Below, one piece after another: positions 7,171 to 59,200 of a stretch of DNA of 64,000 nt; the first letter of the stretch is position 1; each line of letters begins with the position of its first letter. Below the pieces are notes generated by a model. That model was not told where the DNA came from. It ran no database searches and saw only the letters and a program-made list of their open reading frames with translations. The stretch is from the NCBI GenBank assembly GCA_011390955.1, contig JAABRM010000001.1, forward strand, positions 174,694 through 238,693, read 5' to 3'. The position numbers and the translations under genes are program-made. The stretch is from Oscillatoriales cyanobacterium (lineage in GTDB: Bacteria; Cyanobacteriota; Cyanobacteriia; Cyanobacteriales; Laspinemataceae).

Positions 7171-7222
7171 CAAGCAACAAGCAACAATCAACAAGCAACA
7201 ATCAACAATCAACCAACAATAA
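7171..7222. repeat. (CAACAA/CAAGCAA)n block immediately upstream of the kinase start codon
   Basis: caagcaacaagcaacaatcaacaagcaacaatcaacaatcaaccaacaataac ends 4 nt before the ATG at 7227. Member of the CAACAA/TTGTTG repeat family also seen at 29796, 45065, 47941 and 58975. Confidence 0.6.
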
Positions 7223-7226
7223 CATT

Positions 7227-9089
7227 ATGGCAGAATTCCCTGATTTTAGCAAATACGGCTATCAAATAAAACGTGAATTGGGTCGCAATGTAGCCGGAGG
7301 ACGGCTGACCTACTTGGCTAACCGGATTTTACCCCAAAATTCATCAGCCAATAACGCCGAAAACTGGGTAGTGATTAAGCAATTTCAGTTTGCCACAACG
7401 AGCGCCAATTGGTCAGATTTTAAAGCCCACGATCGCGAAATTAAAGTTTTGCAAAGCCTCGATCGTCCAGGAATTCCTAAATATTTGGATTCTTTCGAGA
7501 CGCCCACGGGTTTTTGTATGGTGCAGGAGTATAAAGAAGCAAAATCTCTGGGAATATTACGCAGTTTTGAGCCAGAACAGATTAAACAAATTGCCCTAGA
7601 CTTGTTAGGAATTTTAGTTTATTTACAAAGTTTAAACCCGTTGGTGATTCATCGAGATATCAAACCAGAAAATATTTTAGTGGCGGAAAATTCCGCAGGT
7701 TCGCTGAAGGTTTATCTGGTTGATTTTGGCTTTGCTCAAATGGGCGGGGGCGAAGTGGCGATGAGCAGTATGGTGAAAGGCACTCTAGGGTTTATGGCAC
7801 CGGAACAGTTGTTTAATCGCAATCTGACTCCGGCATCGGATCTTTATGGTTTGGGGGCGTCTTTAATTTGTTTGCTGACGGCAACTAAATCGATGGAGGT
7901 GGGTAAGTTATTGGATGAAAACTATCATTTTGAATTTAGAGAATTGCTGCCTAAATTGAGTCGGCGCTGGATTTCTTGGCTGGAAAAAATGGTCGAGCCA
8001 GATCCGAAAAATCGCTATGCAAATGCGGCGGAAGCTTTGGCGGCATTGCAACCAATTTATGTTAACCGAACCCCAGAGGTTAAGCTGAGTCCGTCTCCCA
8101 TTGAGTTAGCCGCGTCCAAGGTTGGGGAAACGTTGCGGGTGCAGGTGCTAATAAAAAATTCTGTGCCAGAAACGTTGCTGACGGGTTGGTGGGAGGTGGC
8201 ACCGCATCCGAACGATCCCCCCCAGCCCCCCTTATTAAAGGGGGAGAACGATCCCCCCCAGCCCCCCTTATTAAGGGGGGAGAACGATCCCCCCCAGCCC
8301 CCCTTATTAAGGGGGGAGAACGATCCCCTCCAGCCCCCCTTATTAAGCCATTCTTGGATTAGTTTTAGTCCGTCAAGATTTGCAGACAATCGCGTGGTTT
8401 GTGAGATTTTGATTAATACGCGGAAGCTGAGAACGGGTCAAGTTTACGATCGCCAATTGTTGTTACATACGAATGGGGTGCCGGAAACTCAGACGGTCAG
8501 CTTGACGGTGCAGACGGCGCCGGTGCCGATCGCGGTGCGAAAATTGCCTCGTCGGTTTTTGGGATTACTGTTTTTGGTGGCTGCCGGTGGTTCGGTGGTG
8601 GCTTTGGAGTCCATGATGACTTTGGTGACGGTGGCGATCGCCGGTTTTGTGACTTGGGCGGGTCTTTCGCGGATTTTGGGCAGTCGAAACCATTGGCTAA
8701 AAGTGCTTGTAGCTTTTTTGACTACAATGGTAGTGGCGGGAATTGCCGGATTTGGGATTGGCGTTGTGCTTGGGGCGACGGCGACCGGGTTGTGGACAAC
8801 GGCGATCGCTGCTGCGGTGACGGTGGCAACAGGGGCAAGCTTGCTGGCAACTGCCACGGGAGTGAGAAAAAATTTCGGTACTGGGTGGGCGATCGCGCTT
8901 TGTTTGCTCACAGCAATTTGCGGCATTACTTTCGGTCTGGGTTTAAAATTACAATTATTAGCCTCTCCCTGGCTGTTAGCAATTGCTACCACTGCCCCGG
9001 TACTCGCTTTAGTCCTAATTTTGCCCGCCAGCGATCGGCGACGCCTTGCCAAATATCGGCAATCGGAGCAACATTTAATTGAATCTTAG
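7227..9089 (+). CDS. Membrane-anchored Hanks-type Ser/Thr protein kinase (N-terminal kinase domain, C-terminal multi-TM hydrophobic domain), paralog A
   Basis: Kinase motifs HRDIKPENILV, VDFGFAQ, GTLGFMAPEQ. The C-terminal ~200 aa is almost entirely hydrophobic helices. The central part contains the in-frame 36-bp tandem repeat. Confidence 0.85.
   Translation: MAEFPDFSKYGYQIKRELGRNVAGGRLTYLANRILPQNSSANNAENWVVIKQFQFATTSANWSDFKAHDREIKVLQSLDRPGIPKYLDSFETPTGFCMVQEYKEAKSLGILRSFEPEQIKQIALDLLGILVYLQSLNPLVIHRDIKPENILVAENSAGSLKVYLVDFGFAQMGGGEVAMSSMVKGTLGFMAPEQLFNRNLTPASDLYGLGASLICLLTATKSMEVGKLLDENYHFEFRELLPKLSRRWISWLEKMVEPDPKNRYANAAEALAALQPIYVNRTPEVKLSPSPIELAASKVGETLRVQVLIKNSVPETLLTGWWEVAPHPNDPPQPPLLKGENDPPQPPLLRGENDPPQPPLLRGENDPLQPPLLSHSWISFSPSRFADNRVVCEILINTRKLRTGQVYDRQLLLHTNGVPETQTVSLTVQTAPVPIAVRKLPRRFLGLLFLVAAGGSVVALESMMTLVTVAIAGFVTWAGLSRILGSRNHWLKVLVAFLTTMVVAGIAGFGIGVVLGATATGLWTTAIAAAVTVATGASLLATATGVRKNFGTGWAIALCLLTAICGITFGLGLKLQLLASPWLLAIATTAPVLALVLILPASDRRRLAKYRQSEQHLIES
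8210..8347 (+). repeat. In-frame 36-bp tandem repeat (3.8 copies), each unit carrying the palindrome CCCCCCTTATTAAGGGGGG
   Basis: Unit GAACGATCCCCCCCAGCCCCCCTTATTAAGGGGGGA starts at 8210, 8246, 8282 and 8318. It is translated as (ENDPPQPPLL[K/R]G)n. Paralog B (9295..11235) has no repeat at the equivalent site (APHPNDPKVKPPGHGW). Confidence 0.9.
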
Positions 9090-27097: not shown

Positions 27098-27184
27098 CTG
27101 CCACATCCGTTGCCACATCCGTTGCCAATCCGCTGCCAATCCGTTGCCAATCCGTTGCCAATCCGCTGCCAATCCGCTGCCAAA
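27098..27184. repeat. 12-bp tandem repeat TGCCA(A/C)ATCCG(T/C) x7 in the selO/kinase divergent-convergent spacer
   Basis: ctgccacatccgttgccacatccgttgccaatccgctgccaatccgttgccaatccgttgccaatccgctgccaatccgctgcc. Confidence 0.85.
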
Positions 27185-29743: not shown

Positions 29744-29795
29744 CAGTAAGTATTTTTTTAGTTTATTTAGTTTATCGTGTTTTTGGCTGAAAAAA

Positions 29796-29937
29796 TTTGT
29801 TGTTGGTTATTTGTTATTCGTTATTCGTTGGGTAGGGATTCTTTGGTGGTTGGTGGTTGGTGGCTGGGGAATATTCCTCCCATAACAAATAACAAGTAAC
29901 CAACAACGAACAACCAACAACAAACAACCAACAACAA
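29796..29937. repeat. Palindromic (TTGTTG)n ... (CAACAA)n block with a central GGTTGGT repeat
   Basis: Left arm tttgttgttggttatttgttattcgttattcgttgg. Right arm aacaaataacaagtaaccaacaacgaacaaccaacaacaaacaaccaacaacaaa. The arms are inverted complements. Confidence 0.8.
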
Positions 29938-29986
29938 AAAAATTATGAAGTTTTATATGGATTTGATCAAATTAGATCCTTAAGAG

Positions 29987-32372: not shown

Positions 32373-32804
32373 TGTAGGGTGTGTTCGCGGAAACTTTGGC
32401 ATCAACAATTAACCTCTATTCCAGCCGTAACGCACCACTGGCGGCTAATTAATCATGTTTTAAATTAAATCTGGAACAGGTGTAGGGTGTGTTCGCGGAA
32501 ACTTTGGCATCAACAATTAACCTCTATTCCAGCCGTAACGCACCACTGGCGGCTAATTAATCATGTTTTAAATTAAATCTGGAACAGGTGTAGGGTGTGT
32601 TCGCGGAAACTTTGGCATCAACAATTAACCTCTATTCCAGCCGTAACGCACCACTGGCGGCTAATTAATCATGTTTTAAATTAAATCTGGAACAGGTGTA
32701 GGGTGTGTTCGCGGAAACTTTGGCATCAACAATTAACCTCTATTCCAGCCGTAACGCACCACTGGCGGCTAATTAATCATGTTTTAAATTAAATATGGAA
32801 CAGT
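32373..32804. repeat. Non-coding tandem array: 108-bp unit x4 (nearly identical copies)
   Basis: Unit starts (tgtagggtgtgttcgcggaaactttggcatcaacaattaacc...) are at 32373, 32481, 32589 and 32697. There are stops in all frames. The last unit diverges at its 3' end. Confidence 0.9.
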
Positions 32805-32905: not shown

Positions 32906-32931
32906 AGTTTAATAAATTGGAGATTAAACTC

Positions 32932-33897
32932 ATGCCTGTGGAACTGACTCTGGAACAACAAGAATCTCAAACTGTCCAAAATGCCGAAGTCCACAATACC
33001 GAAGTCCACAATACCGAAGTCCACAATACCGAAGTCCACAATACCGAAGTCCAGAACGCGGAATCCGAAGAGTGGACTCCAACACCTCCCCCTACCGATC
33101 TAATATTTGACGACGGAGAACCGAGGACAAGTAATCGCCATCGCATCGCCATGAATGCCCTCATTGAAGCTGTCACCCTAGCTTATGAAGGACGAGAAGA
33201 TTATTTTGCTGGTGGAAATATGTTCATTTATTACAGCAGCAAACAAGCCCGAAATCGAGATTTTAAAGGCCCTGATGTTTTTATTACCTTGAATGTGGAT
33301 GGGACAAAAGAACGTCAAGGTTGGGTGGTTTGGGAAGAAGAAGGACGCTATCCCGATGTGATTATCGAGTTGATGTCCCCTTCTACTGCGGCTGAGGATT
33401 TGGGCAATAAGAAAAAGCTCTACGAGCAAACTTTTAAAACGGGGCATTATTTTGTCTATGACCCATTTGCTCCCGAATCTTTACAGGGTTGGAAACTAGG
33501 CGAAAATTTCCGTTATGAAGCGATCGCTCCTGACGATCGCGGCTGGCTGTGGTGTTCTAGTTTAGGACTATGGTTGGGTCATTGGTCGGGCACGATCTTA
33601 CGGGAGACGGCGACTTGGTTGCGCTTTTATGACGAAGCGGGAAATTTAGTCAAATTATCCTTTGAGTTAGCTCAACAAGAGCGAGAAATTGCTCAACAAG
33701 AGCGAGAAATTGCTCAACAGGAAAAAGACCGGGCCGATCGCGCTGAATCGGATCTCCAGCAAGAACAACTGGAGAAACAACAAGAAAAAGACCGGGCCGA
33801 TCGCGCTGAAGCTGCTTTAGCCGCAGAACGCGAACAAAAACAAAAATTACGCGATCGCCTACAAGCACTGGGCATTGACCCGGATCGACTGGCTTAA
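32932..33897 (+). CDS. Uma2-family (DUF820) PD-(D/E)xK putative endonuclease with an N-terminal TEVHN x4 repeat and a C-terminal coiled coil
   Basis: Core YFAGGNMFIYY...PDVFITL...PDVIIELMSPST matches the Uma2 family. In-frame 15-bp repeat accgaagtccacaat x4 at 32997..33056. 21-bp and 30-bp coding repeats (QQEREIA x2, QEKDRADRAE x2) at 33663..33810. ATG at 32932 with a GGAG Shine-Dalgarno. Confidence 0.7.
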   Translation: MPVELTLEQQESQTVQNAEVHNTEVHNTEVHNTEVHNTEVQNAESEEWTPTPPPTDLIFDDGEPRTSNRHRIAMNALIEAVTLAYEGREDYFAGGNMFIYYSSKQARNRDFKGPDVFITLNVDGTKERQGWVVWEEEGRYPDVIIELMSPSTAAEDLGNKKKLYEQTFKTGHYFVYDPFAPESLQGWKLGENFRYEAIAPDDRGWLWCSSLGLWLGHWSGTILRETATWLRFYDEAGNLVKLSFELAQQEREIAQQEREIAQQEKDRADRAESDLQQEQLEKQQEKDRADRAEAALAAEREQKQKLRDRLQALGIDPDRLA

Positions 33898-45064: not shown

Positions 45065-45355
45065 GTCATAAACAAATTTGTTGTTGGTTATTTGTTATTT
45101 GTTGGTTGTTATTCGTTATGCTTTACTCGTGATTTGCCTCAAATCACCAACCGACAACAAACAACCAACAACCAACAAACAACCAACAACCAACAACTAA
45201 CAACCGACAACAAACAACCAACAAACAACCAACAACCAACAACCAACAACCAACAACCAACAACCAACAACCAACAACCAACAACCAACCAACAACCAAC
45301 AACCAACAACCAACAACCAACAACCAACAACCAACAACTAACAACTAATAACATC
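45065..45355. repeat. Largest (CAACAA)n/(TTGTTG)n palindromic block (~290 bp) between the convergent ssb and lipB
   Basis: A TTGTTGGTTATTTGTTATTTGTTGG arm is followed by about 200 bp of CAACAACCAACAA units. The ORFs overlapping it (QQTTNN / LLVVGCW translations) are artefacts. Confidence 0.85.
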
Positions 45356-52972: not shown

Positions 52973-53581
52973 CTAGGCTTGACGCGAGTAGTATTCAACC
53001 ACTAGCAGTTCATTAATTTGCAAAGCCACCCACTCCCGTTCGACCAGTCCGTTAACTTTGCCGGTCAATTTTTCTTTTTCAAATTCTAAATGGCTCGGCA
53101 AGTGAGCCAAACCGGGAGATTGCAGATTAGCTTTGACCATTTCTCGTGACTTGTCCCGGTCTCTAACCGCGATCGCATCCCCTGGACGACAGCTATAGCT
53201 GGCAATATTCACCCCCCGACCATTCACCATAATATGGCCATGATTGACCAATTGGCGAGCCGCCGGAATTGTTGGCGCCATGCCTAGGCGAAAAACGGTG
53301 TTATCCAAACGCATTTCCAGCAGTTGCAGCAGCACCAAACCCGTAGAACCTGTGGCCCGACGCGCTCGACGCACATAGCGCAGCATTTGCTTTTCGGTTA
53401 AGCCATAGTTAAAGCGCAGCTTTTGCTTTTCTTCTAAGCGGATCGCATATTCAGAACGTTTGCGACGCGCTTGACCGTGTTGACCAGGGGGATAAGCACG
53501 CTTGGCACTTTTACGAGTTAAACCGGGCAGTTCTCCCAGACGACGAACGATTCTGAGACGAGCGCCTCTGTATCTTGACAT
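52973..53581 (-). CDS. rpsD: 30S ribosomal protein S4
   Basis: [16 protein letters not shown]...YGLTEKQ...[10 protein letters not shown], 202 aa. Confidence 0.95.
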
Positions 53582-53730
53582 ATTTTATTGACTCCGTTGG
53601 TCTTAATTTTACCCAGACTCTCTATTATAAAACGGGAAAGCAAAATCAGCGATAAAAATTCACAAAATTCTGATGCGGATCGAATCAGGGGTCACAGGCA
53701 ACCGAGTCCAGGCTTGAAATTTGACTCTCG

Positions 53731-53917
53731 ATCTCTCCGTGTATCTCCGTATATCTCCGTATATCTCCGTGTATCTCCGTATATCTCCGTATGTTTCCGT
53801 ATGTTTCCGTATGTTTCCGTATGTTTCCGTATGTTTCCGTATGTTTCCGTATGTTTCCGTATGTTTCCGTATGTTTCCGTATGTTTCCGTATGTTTCCGT
53901 ATGTTTCCGTATGTTTC
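53731..53917. repeat. 10-bp microsatellite (TCTCCGTRTA x6 then TTTCCGTATG x12) in the rpsD / downstream-gene divergent promoter region
   Basis: 18 perfect 10-bp units. Spurious ORFs with (YLRVSP)n / (FRMFPYVSVC)n translations overlap it on both strands. Confidence 0.9.
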
Positions 53918-54058
53918 TCAGTGTTCGCCATTGTTCGCCACTGTCGATCGGTGTTCCCCAGTTTTTTCCGCCACAGCACCTTGCCTTTACCTGTCAACTG
54001 CCAACAATCACCGATTACAATTCATCTATAAGGTTTTCTCAATTTTTGTAGGCCACTT

Positions 54059-54622
54059 ATGAAACAAAAACCAACCAAAACCCCTAGGCATTCCCCCGCT
54101 AGAGGAAAAACGATCGCCATTAAGCATTTGGTGATTGCTGCTTTGCCCTTGGTATTCTCTGTGATGCCTTTGGCGAATCCAGCAAATGCGGCTAAAAATG
54201 AATACGATCGATGTGCCGGGGCTTTAATGAAGCTGAATCTGAGTCCCCAAGAGGTTGCCACAACCTGTAGCGAAAGTCTGTACCCGGAAAATTTGGCCAG
54301 TTGTGTGGTGGATATCGCCGGGGGTACGGATATTCTGGCGGTGGATGCTTTGGCCACTTGTAGGCGGGTGCGTCGTCCTTTACAGTTGGCAACTTGTGTG
54401 GTGGATATTAGTAAAGTGGGTACGGCTGCGGATGCTCCGGCTATTTTAGACCACTGTCGTCGCAGCTTGTTGCCGGAGAATTTTTCTAAATGTGTTTCGG
54501 GTCTGGTGAATCAGACGGATTTGGGTACTACGGCGGCTTTGAGATATTGCATTGATGGCAGCGATCGCGATCGCAATTTGAATTTAAGCTGGCTGCCGCT
54601 ACTACCCACTAATTTAAATTAG
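54059..54622 (+). CDS. Secreted hypothetical protein with three ~35-aa Cys-containing repeats
   Basis: Signal peptide (IAALPLVFSVMPLANPANA). The unit C..(16-18)..C..(8)..CVVDI[AS] recurs three times. Confidence 0.5.
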   Translation: MKQKPTKTPRHSPARGKTIAIKHLVIAALPLVFSVMPLANPANAAKNEYDRCAGALMKLNLSPQEVATTCSESLYPENLASCVVDIAGGTDILAVDALATCRRVRRPLQLATCVVDISKVGTAADAPAILDHCRRSLLPENFSKCVSGLVNQTDLGTTAALRYCIDGSDRDRNLNLSWLPLLPTNLN

Positions 54623-55202: not shown

Positions 55203-55568
55203 CTATCGCGTCAGCGAATCGCCATTGCTGGCACTCCCCACCAGTTGATCTTTAATCGCTTTACCGTAAGCTTGACGCAGTTCACTCTTGGTCAACTGCG
55301 GATGATGCTGTCGATCCAATTGTTCGCGATCGCTGATATTGTTCAGCCGGTTTCCGTGTGGCTTTGGTGTTTGCTGATGTTCTTTGATTAAACGGTTGTA
55401 AGTGCGATAAGGAATGTAATGCAGCGGGTTGTACCCACCAAAGCGCAAGATCAGGAGGCAAGCCCAAGAATACTTTCCGGCTAAAATTGCTTCTACTACT
55501 TGTTCAAACTGCTCTAAAGTCATTATCTTGTCAAGTTTGCTTTCTGGATAAGAAATCTCGTAAGACAT
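55203..55568 (-). CDS. HetP-family protein (heterocyst-commitment HetP-like)
   Basis: [46 protein letters not shown] matches the conserved HetP core as I recall it. Confidence 0.55.
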
Positions 55569-58904: not shown

Positions 58905-58974
58905 AGATATTTTGGCTTTTTGATGTTATTCGATGATGGATAAAACCAAGATATCAATTAGTTGTCTTCTTAGT

Positions 58975-59102
58975 TCTTTGTTATTCGTTATTGGTTATTT
59001 GTTGTTTGTTGTTGGTTATTGGTTATTTGTTGTTTGTTGTTGGTTGTTGGTTGTTTGTTCAGCAGCCACCATCCAATAACGAATAACCAATAACCAATAA
59101 CT
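58975..59102. repeat. (TTGTTG)n...(CAATAAC)n palindromic block in the GH116 / transporter divergent spacer
   Basis: ctttgttattcgttattggttatttgttgtttgttgttggtt...ccaataacgaataaccaataaccaataac. Confidence 0.8.
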
Positions 59103-59150: not shown

Positions 59151-59200
59151 ATCGCTAATAATCGCTAATAATCGCTAATAATCGCTAATAATCACTACTA
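59151..59200. repeat. 10-bp tandem repeat ATCGCTAATA x4 (+1 degenerate) 24 nt upstream of the transporter start
   Basis: atcgctaataatcgctaataatcgctaataatcgctaataatcactacta. Confidence 0.85.

Follow-up and report, generated by a model that had tools for sequence, protein, structure and literature searches.

Does a tandem array of eighteen 10-bp units, placed between two divergently transcribed genes, serve either of them, or is it simply the product of a mutational process acting where sequence is free to change? The array lies mid-spacer in a 477-bp divergent gap between rpsD and a gene for a Cys-rich protein. The window, by which we mean the whole 64-kb stretch of DNA that was analysed, has a G+C content of 42.7% and contains 106 copies of the HIP1 octamer GCGATCGC, and is cyanobacterial. 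We approached the question through the internal structure of the array, the genes and predicted promoters on either side of it, the same spacer in related organisms, and the repeat content of the window.

Anatomy of the array and its flanks

An earlier note on this DNA had described six TCTCCGTRTA units followed by twelve TTTCCGTATG units, eighteen copies of a 10-bp repeat in all, and both the sequence and TRF bear this out. The array spans 53734-53917, at most three bases from where it had first been placed, and holds 18.4 units in register; TRF reports a period of 10, 17.2 copies, 97% matches and a score of 281. As defined from the sequence together with the units of relatives, the left sub-array (53734..53793) consists of six TCTCCGTRTA/G units, TCTCCGTGTA at 53734, TCTCCGTATA at 53744 and again at 53754, TCTCCGTGTA at 53764, TCTCCGTATA at 53774 and TCTCCGTATG at 53784. 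Taken three at a time, the six make a 30-bp higher-order unit that occurs twice (G,A,A / G,A,G-type). The last of them, TCTCCGTATG, stands at the junction of the two sub-arrays and is the form that relatives carry. The right sub-array (53794..53917), delimited by TRF and exact matches, is made up of twelve perfect TTTCCGTATG units, or B units, at 53794-53913 and a partial TTTC at 53914-53917, and is the latest expansion in the array. Further to the right, TRF, the sequence and relatives reveal a decayed tail (53918..53960) that keeps the 10-bp period in four xTGTTCGCCA-type units, in order GTGTTCGCCA TTGTTCGCCA CTGTCGATCG GTGTTCCCCA.

Since twelve perfect copies amount to about 120 in-phase identical bases, a chance origin of the array is excluded. 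Two short-read assemblies of the same strain match the window with no mismatches over 3174 and 975 bases, and both junctions of the array are confirmed. Four Logan contigs of this strain end inside the array, within the perfect run. The array thus breaks short-read assemblies, and because the contigs stop within the perfect run, the count of twelve is that of the window's own assembly.

Several other identities were considered for the array and rejected. Four open reading frames cross it (147, 113, 101 and 86 aa), as they automatically must because the unit contains no stop codon in any frame of either strand; relatives lack these frames, and the period is not a multiple of 3. As for a MITE or other mobile element, the sole flanking inverted repeat is a weak, AT-rich 14-nt pair. 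Hairpin or cruciform DNA was set aside as well, the array folded as single-stranded DNA giving an MFE of 0 kcal/mol. Rfam 15 yielded no covariance-model match at E <= 10 over 53300-54300 on both strands. A metagenome scan for 2.4 B-type (TTTCCGTATG) units matched nothing, and one with the conserved right-flank 20-mer returned just three unrelated coding-region matches from another organism.

On the left of the spacer, rpsD (52973..53581, minus strand) encodes the 202-aa ribosomal protein S4, recognized by Pfam PF00163 Ribosomal_S4 (4.7e-23) and PF01479 S4 (1.5e-16). On the right, the gene at 54059..54622 (plus strand), defined by homologue alignment and synteny, encodes a Cys-rich protein of 187 aa. 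Its N-terminus is basic and then hydrophobic, resembles a signal peptide and ends in ANPANA. The protein has no Pfam match, and among 14 family members eight Cys residues are invariant in a repeated C..L.P..LS.CV pattern. To follow synteny and leader conservation we scanned cyanobacterial genome contigs for rpsD and obtained at least 80 loci, the best of them 82-87% identical; among the matches listed, a homologue of the Cys-rich protein is divergent to rpsD at 66 of 80 loci. Judged from this gene order, the moaA-rpsD / divergent Cys-protein arrangement is old. The family is found beside rpsD across Nostocales, Microcoleus, Chroococcidiopsis and others, and the gene at 67-68% identity in L095 and L096 adjoins cobU instead.

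Both genes appear to have their promoters close at hand. The predicted rpsD -10 box is a perfect TATAAT on the minus strand (53624..53629), found by inspection and invariant in the alignment of three lineages, and lies 105 bp from the start of the array. Five bases downstream of it begins the motif GTCTGGGTAAAATT (53605..53618, minus strand), which marks the start of the rpsD leader. With up to three substitutions, this motif stands at about -40 from the rpsD ATG in 61 of the 80 loci among the matches listed, spread over several cyanobacterial orders, compared with 9 of 1600 in a shuffled upstream control. TATAAT, TATACT or CAAAAT often precedes it, and in these listed matches a -10-like hexamer is present ahead of it only in part (strict TAnnnT at 11 of the 61 loci; CAAAAT in most Nostoc). 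A leader motif at -40 puts the rpsD promoter near the gene and, here, 105 bp away from the array. The GTCTGGGTAAAATT motif could be an S4 autoregulatory leader element, and it has no match in Rfam. In this same region, six metagenome contigs with identical S4 (L004, L005 and L007-L010; first 26-52 bases) all stop at GGTCTTAA(T), which is 26-27 nt ahead of rpsD. One of them runs on into Illumina adapter, so the ends probably arose during library preparation at an AATT/TTAA site and are uninformative on the array.

On the other side, a promoter and leader block of the Cys-rich gene extends from CAGTTTTTTCCGCCACAG at 53959 (53959..54058, plus strand) and is conserved in the three-lineage alignment as well as in L094, L097 and L106. 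Its predicted -10 box, TACAAT at 54016-54021 on the plus strand, is also conserved, reading TAGAAT in the closest lineage. It lies 99 bp from the array, or 94 bp from 53922, where perfect periodicity ends. A sigma-70 and terminator scan, which requires a -35 box, found no sites, including upstream of and within the array. Because of this requirement we located the -10 boxes by eye and by conservation, and they are predicted, not mapped. The TATGTT in each B unit was also considered as a -10-like hexamer and set aside: no -35 partner stands 16-18 bp away, and roughly one random 10-mer in four would contain TAnnnT. With the -10 boxes placed as above, the array would precede both predicted core promoters and fall outside the two genes and their short predicted leaders. 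The Pfam assignment, the signal-peptide-like N-terminus and the conserved promoter blocks all uphold what had been said of its location, that is, a divergent promoter spacer between rpsD and the gene for a secreted Cys protein.

The same spacer in relatives and repeats elsewhere in the window

Relatives were found through Cys-family proteins at 83-100% identity and the members of their clusters, which led to contigs spanning the spacer; three lineages were aligned and further relatives were read directly. About 100 bp next to each ATG is nearly invariant among lineages, and the centre of the spacer can be aligned only as repeat. In the closest lineage (L097; nine contigs from nine samples), rpsD DNA is 98.7-98.9% identical, and the spacer measures 285 bp and has no array. 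In the array's place stand only GATCTCTGAG GATCTCCCCG GATTTCTCAG and then one GTGTTCACCA unit. The two genes and their conserved promoter blocks are all present in this lineage, and its nine contigs indicate that the array is dispensable. Between the predicted boxes, the -10 to -10 distance is about 193 bp in this array-less lineage and 385 bp here, a doubling.

Other relatives carry arrays of their own. In the L091 lineage (L091 and L108-L112; six NCBI assemblies), rpsD DNA is 95% identical and the 353-bp spacer contains eight degenerate 10-bp units, three of them perfect TCTCCGTATG. The flanks of these six genomes contain SNPs, and the length is identical in all six. A contig of L094 begins inside an array of 12-bp units, CGTATCTATCTC, and L092 has 2.5 copies of an 18-bp unit, ATCTCCGTATCCGTACTC. 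Units of 10, 12 and 18 bp, all built on a CCGTAT core, argue that unit length is unconstrained. The xTGTTCGCCA-type tail units likewise differ in number, with four here, one in the closest lineage and about 1.5 in the L091 lineage.

Copy number at the orthologous locus thus varies between lineages, from 18 units to 8 degenerate ones to no array, in spacers of 477, 353 and 285 bp. The comparison of strains proposed in the earlier note therefore shows a site whose length differs over evolutionary time. Within lineages we saw no length variation in six L091 genomes and nine L097 contigs; because the arrays of these relatives contain at most three perfect units, their constancy says little about the run of twelve. 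A CCGTAT-type array has been kept at the site in four of the five sampled lineages. Read across these spacers, an array with a CCGTAT/ATCTC core is seen to have occupied the site through species-level divergence, apparently being remodelled, expanded, contracted or lost in each lineage. Among the matches listed from distant cyanobacteria, 13 of 66 rpsD-Cys spacers contain unrelated tandem arrays (TRF >= 50), mostly of heptamers.

The surrounding DNA differs among relatives too. An ORF of 121 aa at 55203-55568 on the minus strand, between the genes for the Cys-rich protein and GH116, is assigned to HetP (PF28069) by precomputed annotation of relatives' contigs; our own Pfam scan of it gave no match at E <= 0.1. 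The L091 lineage lacks this HetP-like gene and about 1.4 kb of DNA around it. The nearest named relatives of the neighbouring GH116 enzyme, at 74-76% identity, belong to Oscillatoria sp. SIO1A7, [Phormidium] sp. ETS-05 and Microcoleus.

Tandem repeats are common throughout the window. Merged TRF arrays with a score >= 50 number 20 in the 64 kb, 16 of them in non-coding DNA, where they are found in 11 of the window's 37 intergenic gaps and make up 10% of non-coding bases.

Long heptamer arrays of the AACAAAC / CAACCAA / GTTGTTG types, with up to about 27 copies, lie at 45148-45353, 58973-59101, 29795-29938 and 7171-7213. They are found in intergenic gaps, often two to a gap in opposite orientations, and resemble classic cyanobacterial STRR. 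The gap before ORF 32917-33897 contains 4.0 copies of a 108-bp unit (32373-32803; 99% identity). The first part of the ORF itself includes a 15-bp x 5.3 array (32974-33053), so either the annotated start may be wrong or a 5-aa repeat may be encoded. Within the mechanical ORF 7227-9089 is the 36-bp x 3.8 array GAACGATCCCCCCCAGCCCCCCTTATTAAGGGGGGA (8210-8347), which has an internal inverted repeat, CCCCCC...GGGGGG; this part of the ORF may be non-coding or a repeat element instead of coding sequence. Two further arrays in gaps have near-helical units, 11 bp x 7.6 of CTGCCAATCCG at 27098-27183 and 10 bp x 4.7 of ATCGCTAATA at 59151-59197, and they indicate that unit lengths near 10-11 bp are found more than once in this genome, in arrays of unrelated sequence.

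Origin of the array and possible functions

We think it likely that the array is a locus-specific minisatellite (VNTR) without a dedicated function, and we infer both that it came from slipped-strand misalignment in the unconstrained centre of the spacer and that it is neutral. Such an array would arise at a short proto-repeat, either by slipped-strand misalignment or by unequal exchange between sister or homologous chromosome copies. The starting point would have been an ancestral TCTCCGTATG-type unit at the site. From units of this type a variant triplet may have emerged and been duplicated as the 30-bp block. A C-to-T variant, TTTCCGTATG, may likewise have come from the TCTCCGTATG type and undergone the recent expansion to twelve identical copies. 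The adjacent TGTTCGCCA unit would also have been duplicated. Stepwise amplification is indicated by the doubled 30-bp pattern, the twelve perfect units and a junction unit identical to that of relatives; the same features favour the suggestion, already made in the earlier note, of more than one round of amplification. The best-supported account of this unit pattern is that the array records at least three amplification events.

The array probably has no function beyond lengthening the spacer, and it is best read as one case of the genome-wide load of non-coding tandem repeats that is typical of filamentous cyanobacteria. If so, it shows how freely the centre of a divergent spacer can grow while the gene-proximal control regions stay untouched, and it would be usable as a strain marker of the VNTR kind. 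Some observations count against this explanation. Tandem repeats are unstable, and twelve perfect units are expected to change length often. RNA from the plus strand of the array pairs with itself by G.U wobble, which would be relevant if the array were transcribed. Persistence of CCGTAT arrays in four of five lineages could reflect weak selection for a spacer instead of a mutational hot spot, which would weigh against neutrality.

The unit measures one helical turn, and on that basis intrinsic curvature and a repeated factor-binding array had both been put forward for this locus. It seems to us improbable that the array was selected for a structural role, be it as DNA with an intrinsic curve or as an insulator that keeps the divergent promoters from influencing each other, for instance by transcription-driven supercoiling. 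A 10-bp period does sum the bend of each unit, and the array doubles the distance between promoters. We estimated the bend with a dinucleotide wedge model, whose values are to be read as relative and whose absolutes are approximate; on this scale the B-unit array comes out at 12.8 degrees per helical turn, compared with 28.7 for a phased A6 control and 5.6 for an arbitrary unit. Among 184-bp segments of this sequence, local curvature is at about the 88th percentile and the end-to-end/contour ratio of 0.81 at about the 6th. However, phased A6 tracts curve more than twice as strongly, and 300 permutations of the ten unit bases gave 13.5 +/- 7.0, with 52% of them at least as curved as the array. 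Because the array equals its permuted units, it has just the modest curvature that any 10-bp repeat acquires. The longest A/T run in a unit is TTT, and phased A-tracts of at least 4 bp are absent. Relatives, moreover, have 12-bp or 18-bp units that are out of helical phase, or no array. Neither strong curvature nor a selected length of one helical turn is supported by these comparisons. An array of binding sites, for instance for a response regulator on direct repeats at 10-11-bp spacing, would account for the periodicity and the promoter-region location, and nothing more speaks for it. Known regulator sites typically comprise few direct repeats, and eighteen is far beyond that. The unit does not recur in the other intergenic regions of the 64-kb window, where one-mismatch matches to TTTCCGTATG outside the array number 3 against 5.2 expected from shuffles. 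It is absent from the closest lineage, whose promoter blocks are kept, and the period is 12 or 18 bp in others. We regard the factor-binding idea as highly unlikely.

Two further possibilities give the array a part in expression. It might be a contingency locus, where frequent changes in the number of 10-bp units would turn the secreted Cys-rich protein or rpsD on and off, or up and down, through the spacing of distal promoter elements. A run of twelve perfect units should, on general knowledge, be prone to slippage, and this expected instability leaves phase variation some weight. The downstream product is secreted, array length varies among lineages, and a tract upstream of the core promoter of nadA acts in this way (PMC2791445). 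Yet a distance of at least 94-105 bp separates the array from either predicted -10 box, it is outside both genes, and the sequence between array and conserved block is itself poorly conserved, with no candidate distal operator found in the alignment of relatives. The closest lineage has no array, and the six L091 genomes and nine L097 contigs, whose arrays contain at most three perfect units, show no length polymorphism. A genome rich in such arrays points to a general mutational process, not a dedicated switch. Polyploidy, which is common among filamentous cyanobacteria, would weaken any switch that depends on mutation of a single copy. We know of no established cyanobacterial case of repeat-mediated phase variation. 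Most documented examples come from pathogens that are adapted to a host and have small genomes (PMC11475388). On balance a contingency locus is quite improbable. In a version that we consider very unlikely, slippage in the perfect run would alter promoter distance or coupling, or a G.U-paired leader hairpin, so that filaments come to differ in the secreted protein. The array would matter more if its copy number tuned the secreted protein or S4, and if it were a contingency locus, the repeated retention of CCGTAT arrays across lineages would amount to selection for evolvability.

It is also very doubtful that the array works as RNA, transcribed within a long 5' leader of the Cys-rich gene and acting like the ATCTTTC repeats of hmw1A in Haemophilus influenzae, the precedent for such a leader (PMC12721329). 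CGUAUG can pair with itself through G.U wobble, and the plus strand over 53731-54075 folds at -57.2 kcal/mol (z = -3.3 vs shuffles); array RNA of the minus strand gave no structure signal (z = +1.4). Nevertheless, the long hairpin is missing from the centroid, and the MFE structure makes up just 0.0001 of the ensemble. The units of L094 and L092 (CGTATC) lose the self-pairing. The sigma-70 scan, with its -35 requirement, placed no promoter-like site upstream of or in the array, and the conserved -10-like hexamer about 40 nt from the ATG of the Cys-rich gene argues for a short leader. There is, again, no Rfam match.

Comparison with known repeat systems

Two well-described systems illustrate how an upstream repeat tract can vary expression. 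In Neisseria meningitidis, the phase-variable TAAA tract of nadA occupies roughly -65 to -100, with mapped NadR operators on either side and an IHF site next to it, and switching has been measured at about 4e-4 (PMC2791445). Because its unit is 4 bp, each change in the tract rotates the helix face. The array resembles it in that repeats precede the core promoter of a gene whose product is secreted or on the surface; unlike it, the array has a 10-bp unit, lies 94-105 bp from predicted -10 boxes and has no known flanking operators. In the leaders of H. influenzae hmw1A/hmw2A, the ATCTTTC repeats are transcribed and pair with a G-rich partner, which is cut by RNase III (PMC12721329; PMC8262952). 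Here, too, more than ten units of at least 7 bp stand upstream of a gene for a secreted protein, and plus-strand RNA could form a repeat hairpin. In contrast to hmw, the array has no partner region and its self-pairing is not conserved in relatives. What phase variation requires in these systems, operators for nadA and transcribed, paired repeats for hmw, is in neither case seen here. With respect to the predicted promoters, the tract is not within a reading frame, not between -35 and -10, and not accompanied by a conserved distal flanking element. Iterons and other direct-repeat sites conserve both repeat and spacing at orthologous promoters, whereas in relatives this repeat is absent or has a period of 12 or 18 bp.

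The arrays known as STRR are short tandemly repeated repetitive heptanucleotides. Like them, the array is a tandem repeat in the non-coding DNA of a filamentous cyanobacterium, and the window also holds typical heptamer arrays. It differs in that STRR units are 7 bp long and recur at many loci, whereas this unit is 10 bp long and, within the 64-kb window, confined to one locus. Tandem heptanucleotide repeats were first described in Calothrix PCC 7601, according to work cited in PMC4692102. In Nostoc, heptamers are over-represented and other units of 4-11 nt are not (PMC4692102), so that an array of eighteen 10-bp units is among the longer ones for the group.

The array also invites comparison with the intergenic VNTRs, or minisatellites, that are used for MLVA typing in bacteria, and with the long simple-sequence repeats that surveys have recorded across prokaryotic genomes (PMC4060949; PMC4692102). 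The VNTR class is made up of head-to-tail units of about 6-100 bp in non-coding DNA, and the array, 18.4 x 10 bp with no gene covering it, has this form. Although it is known, unlike those loci, from a single assembly, it shares their short non-coding head-to-tail units and the absence of a coding role. As in those loci, its internal variant units record stepwise amplification, and its length varies across related lineages.
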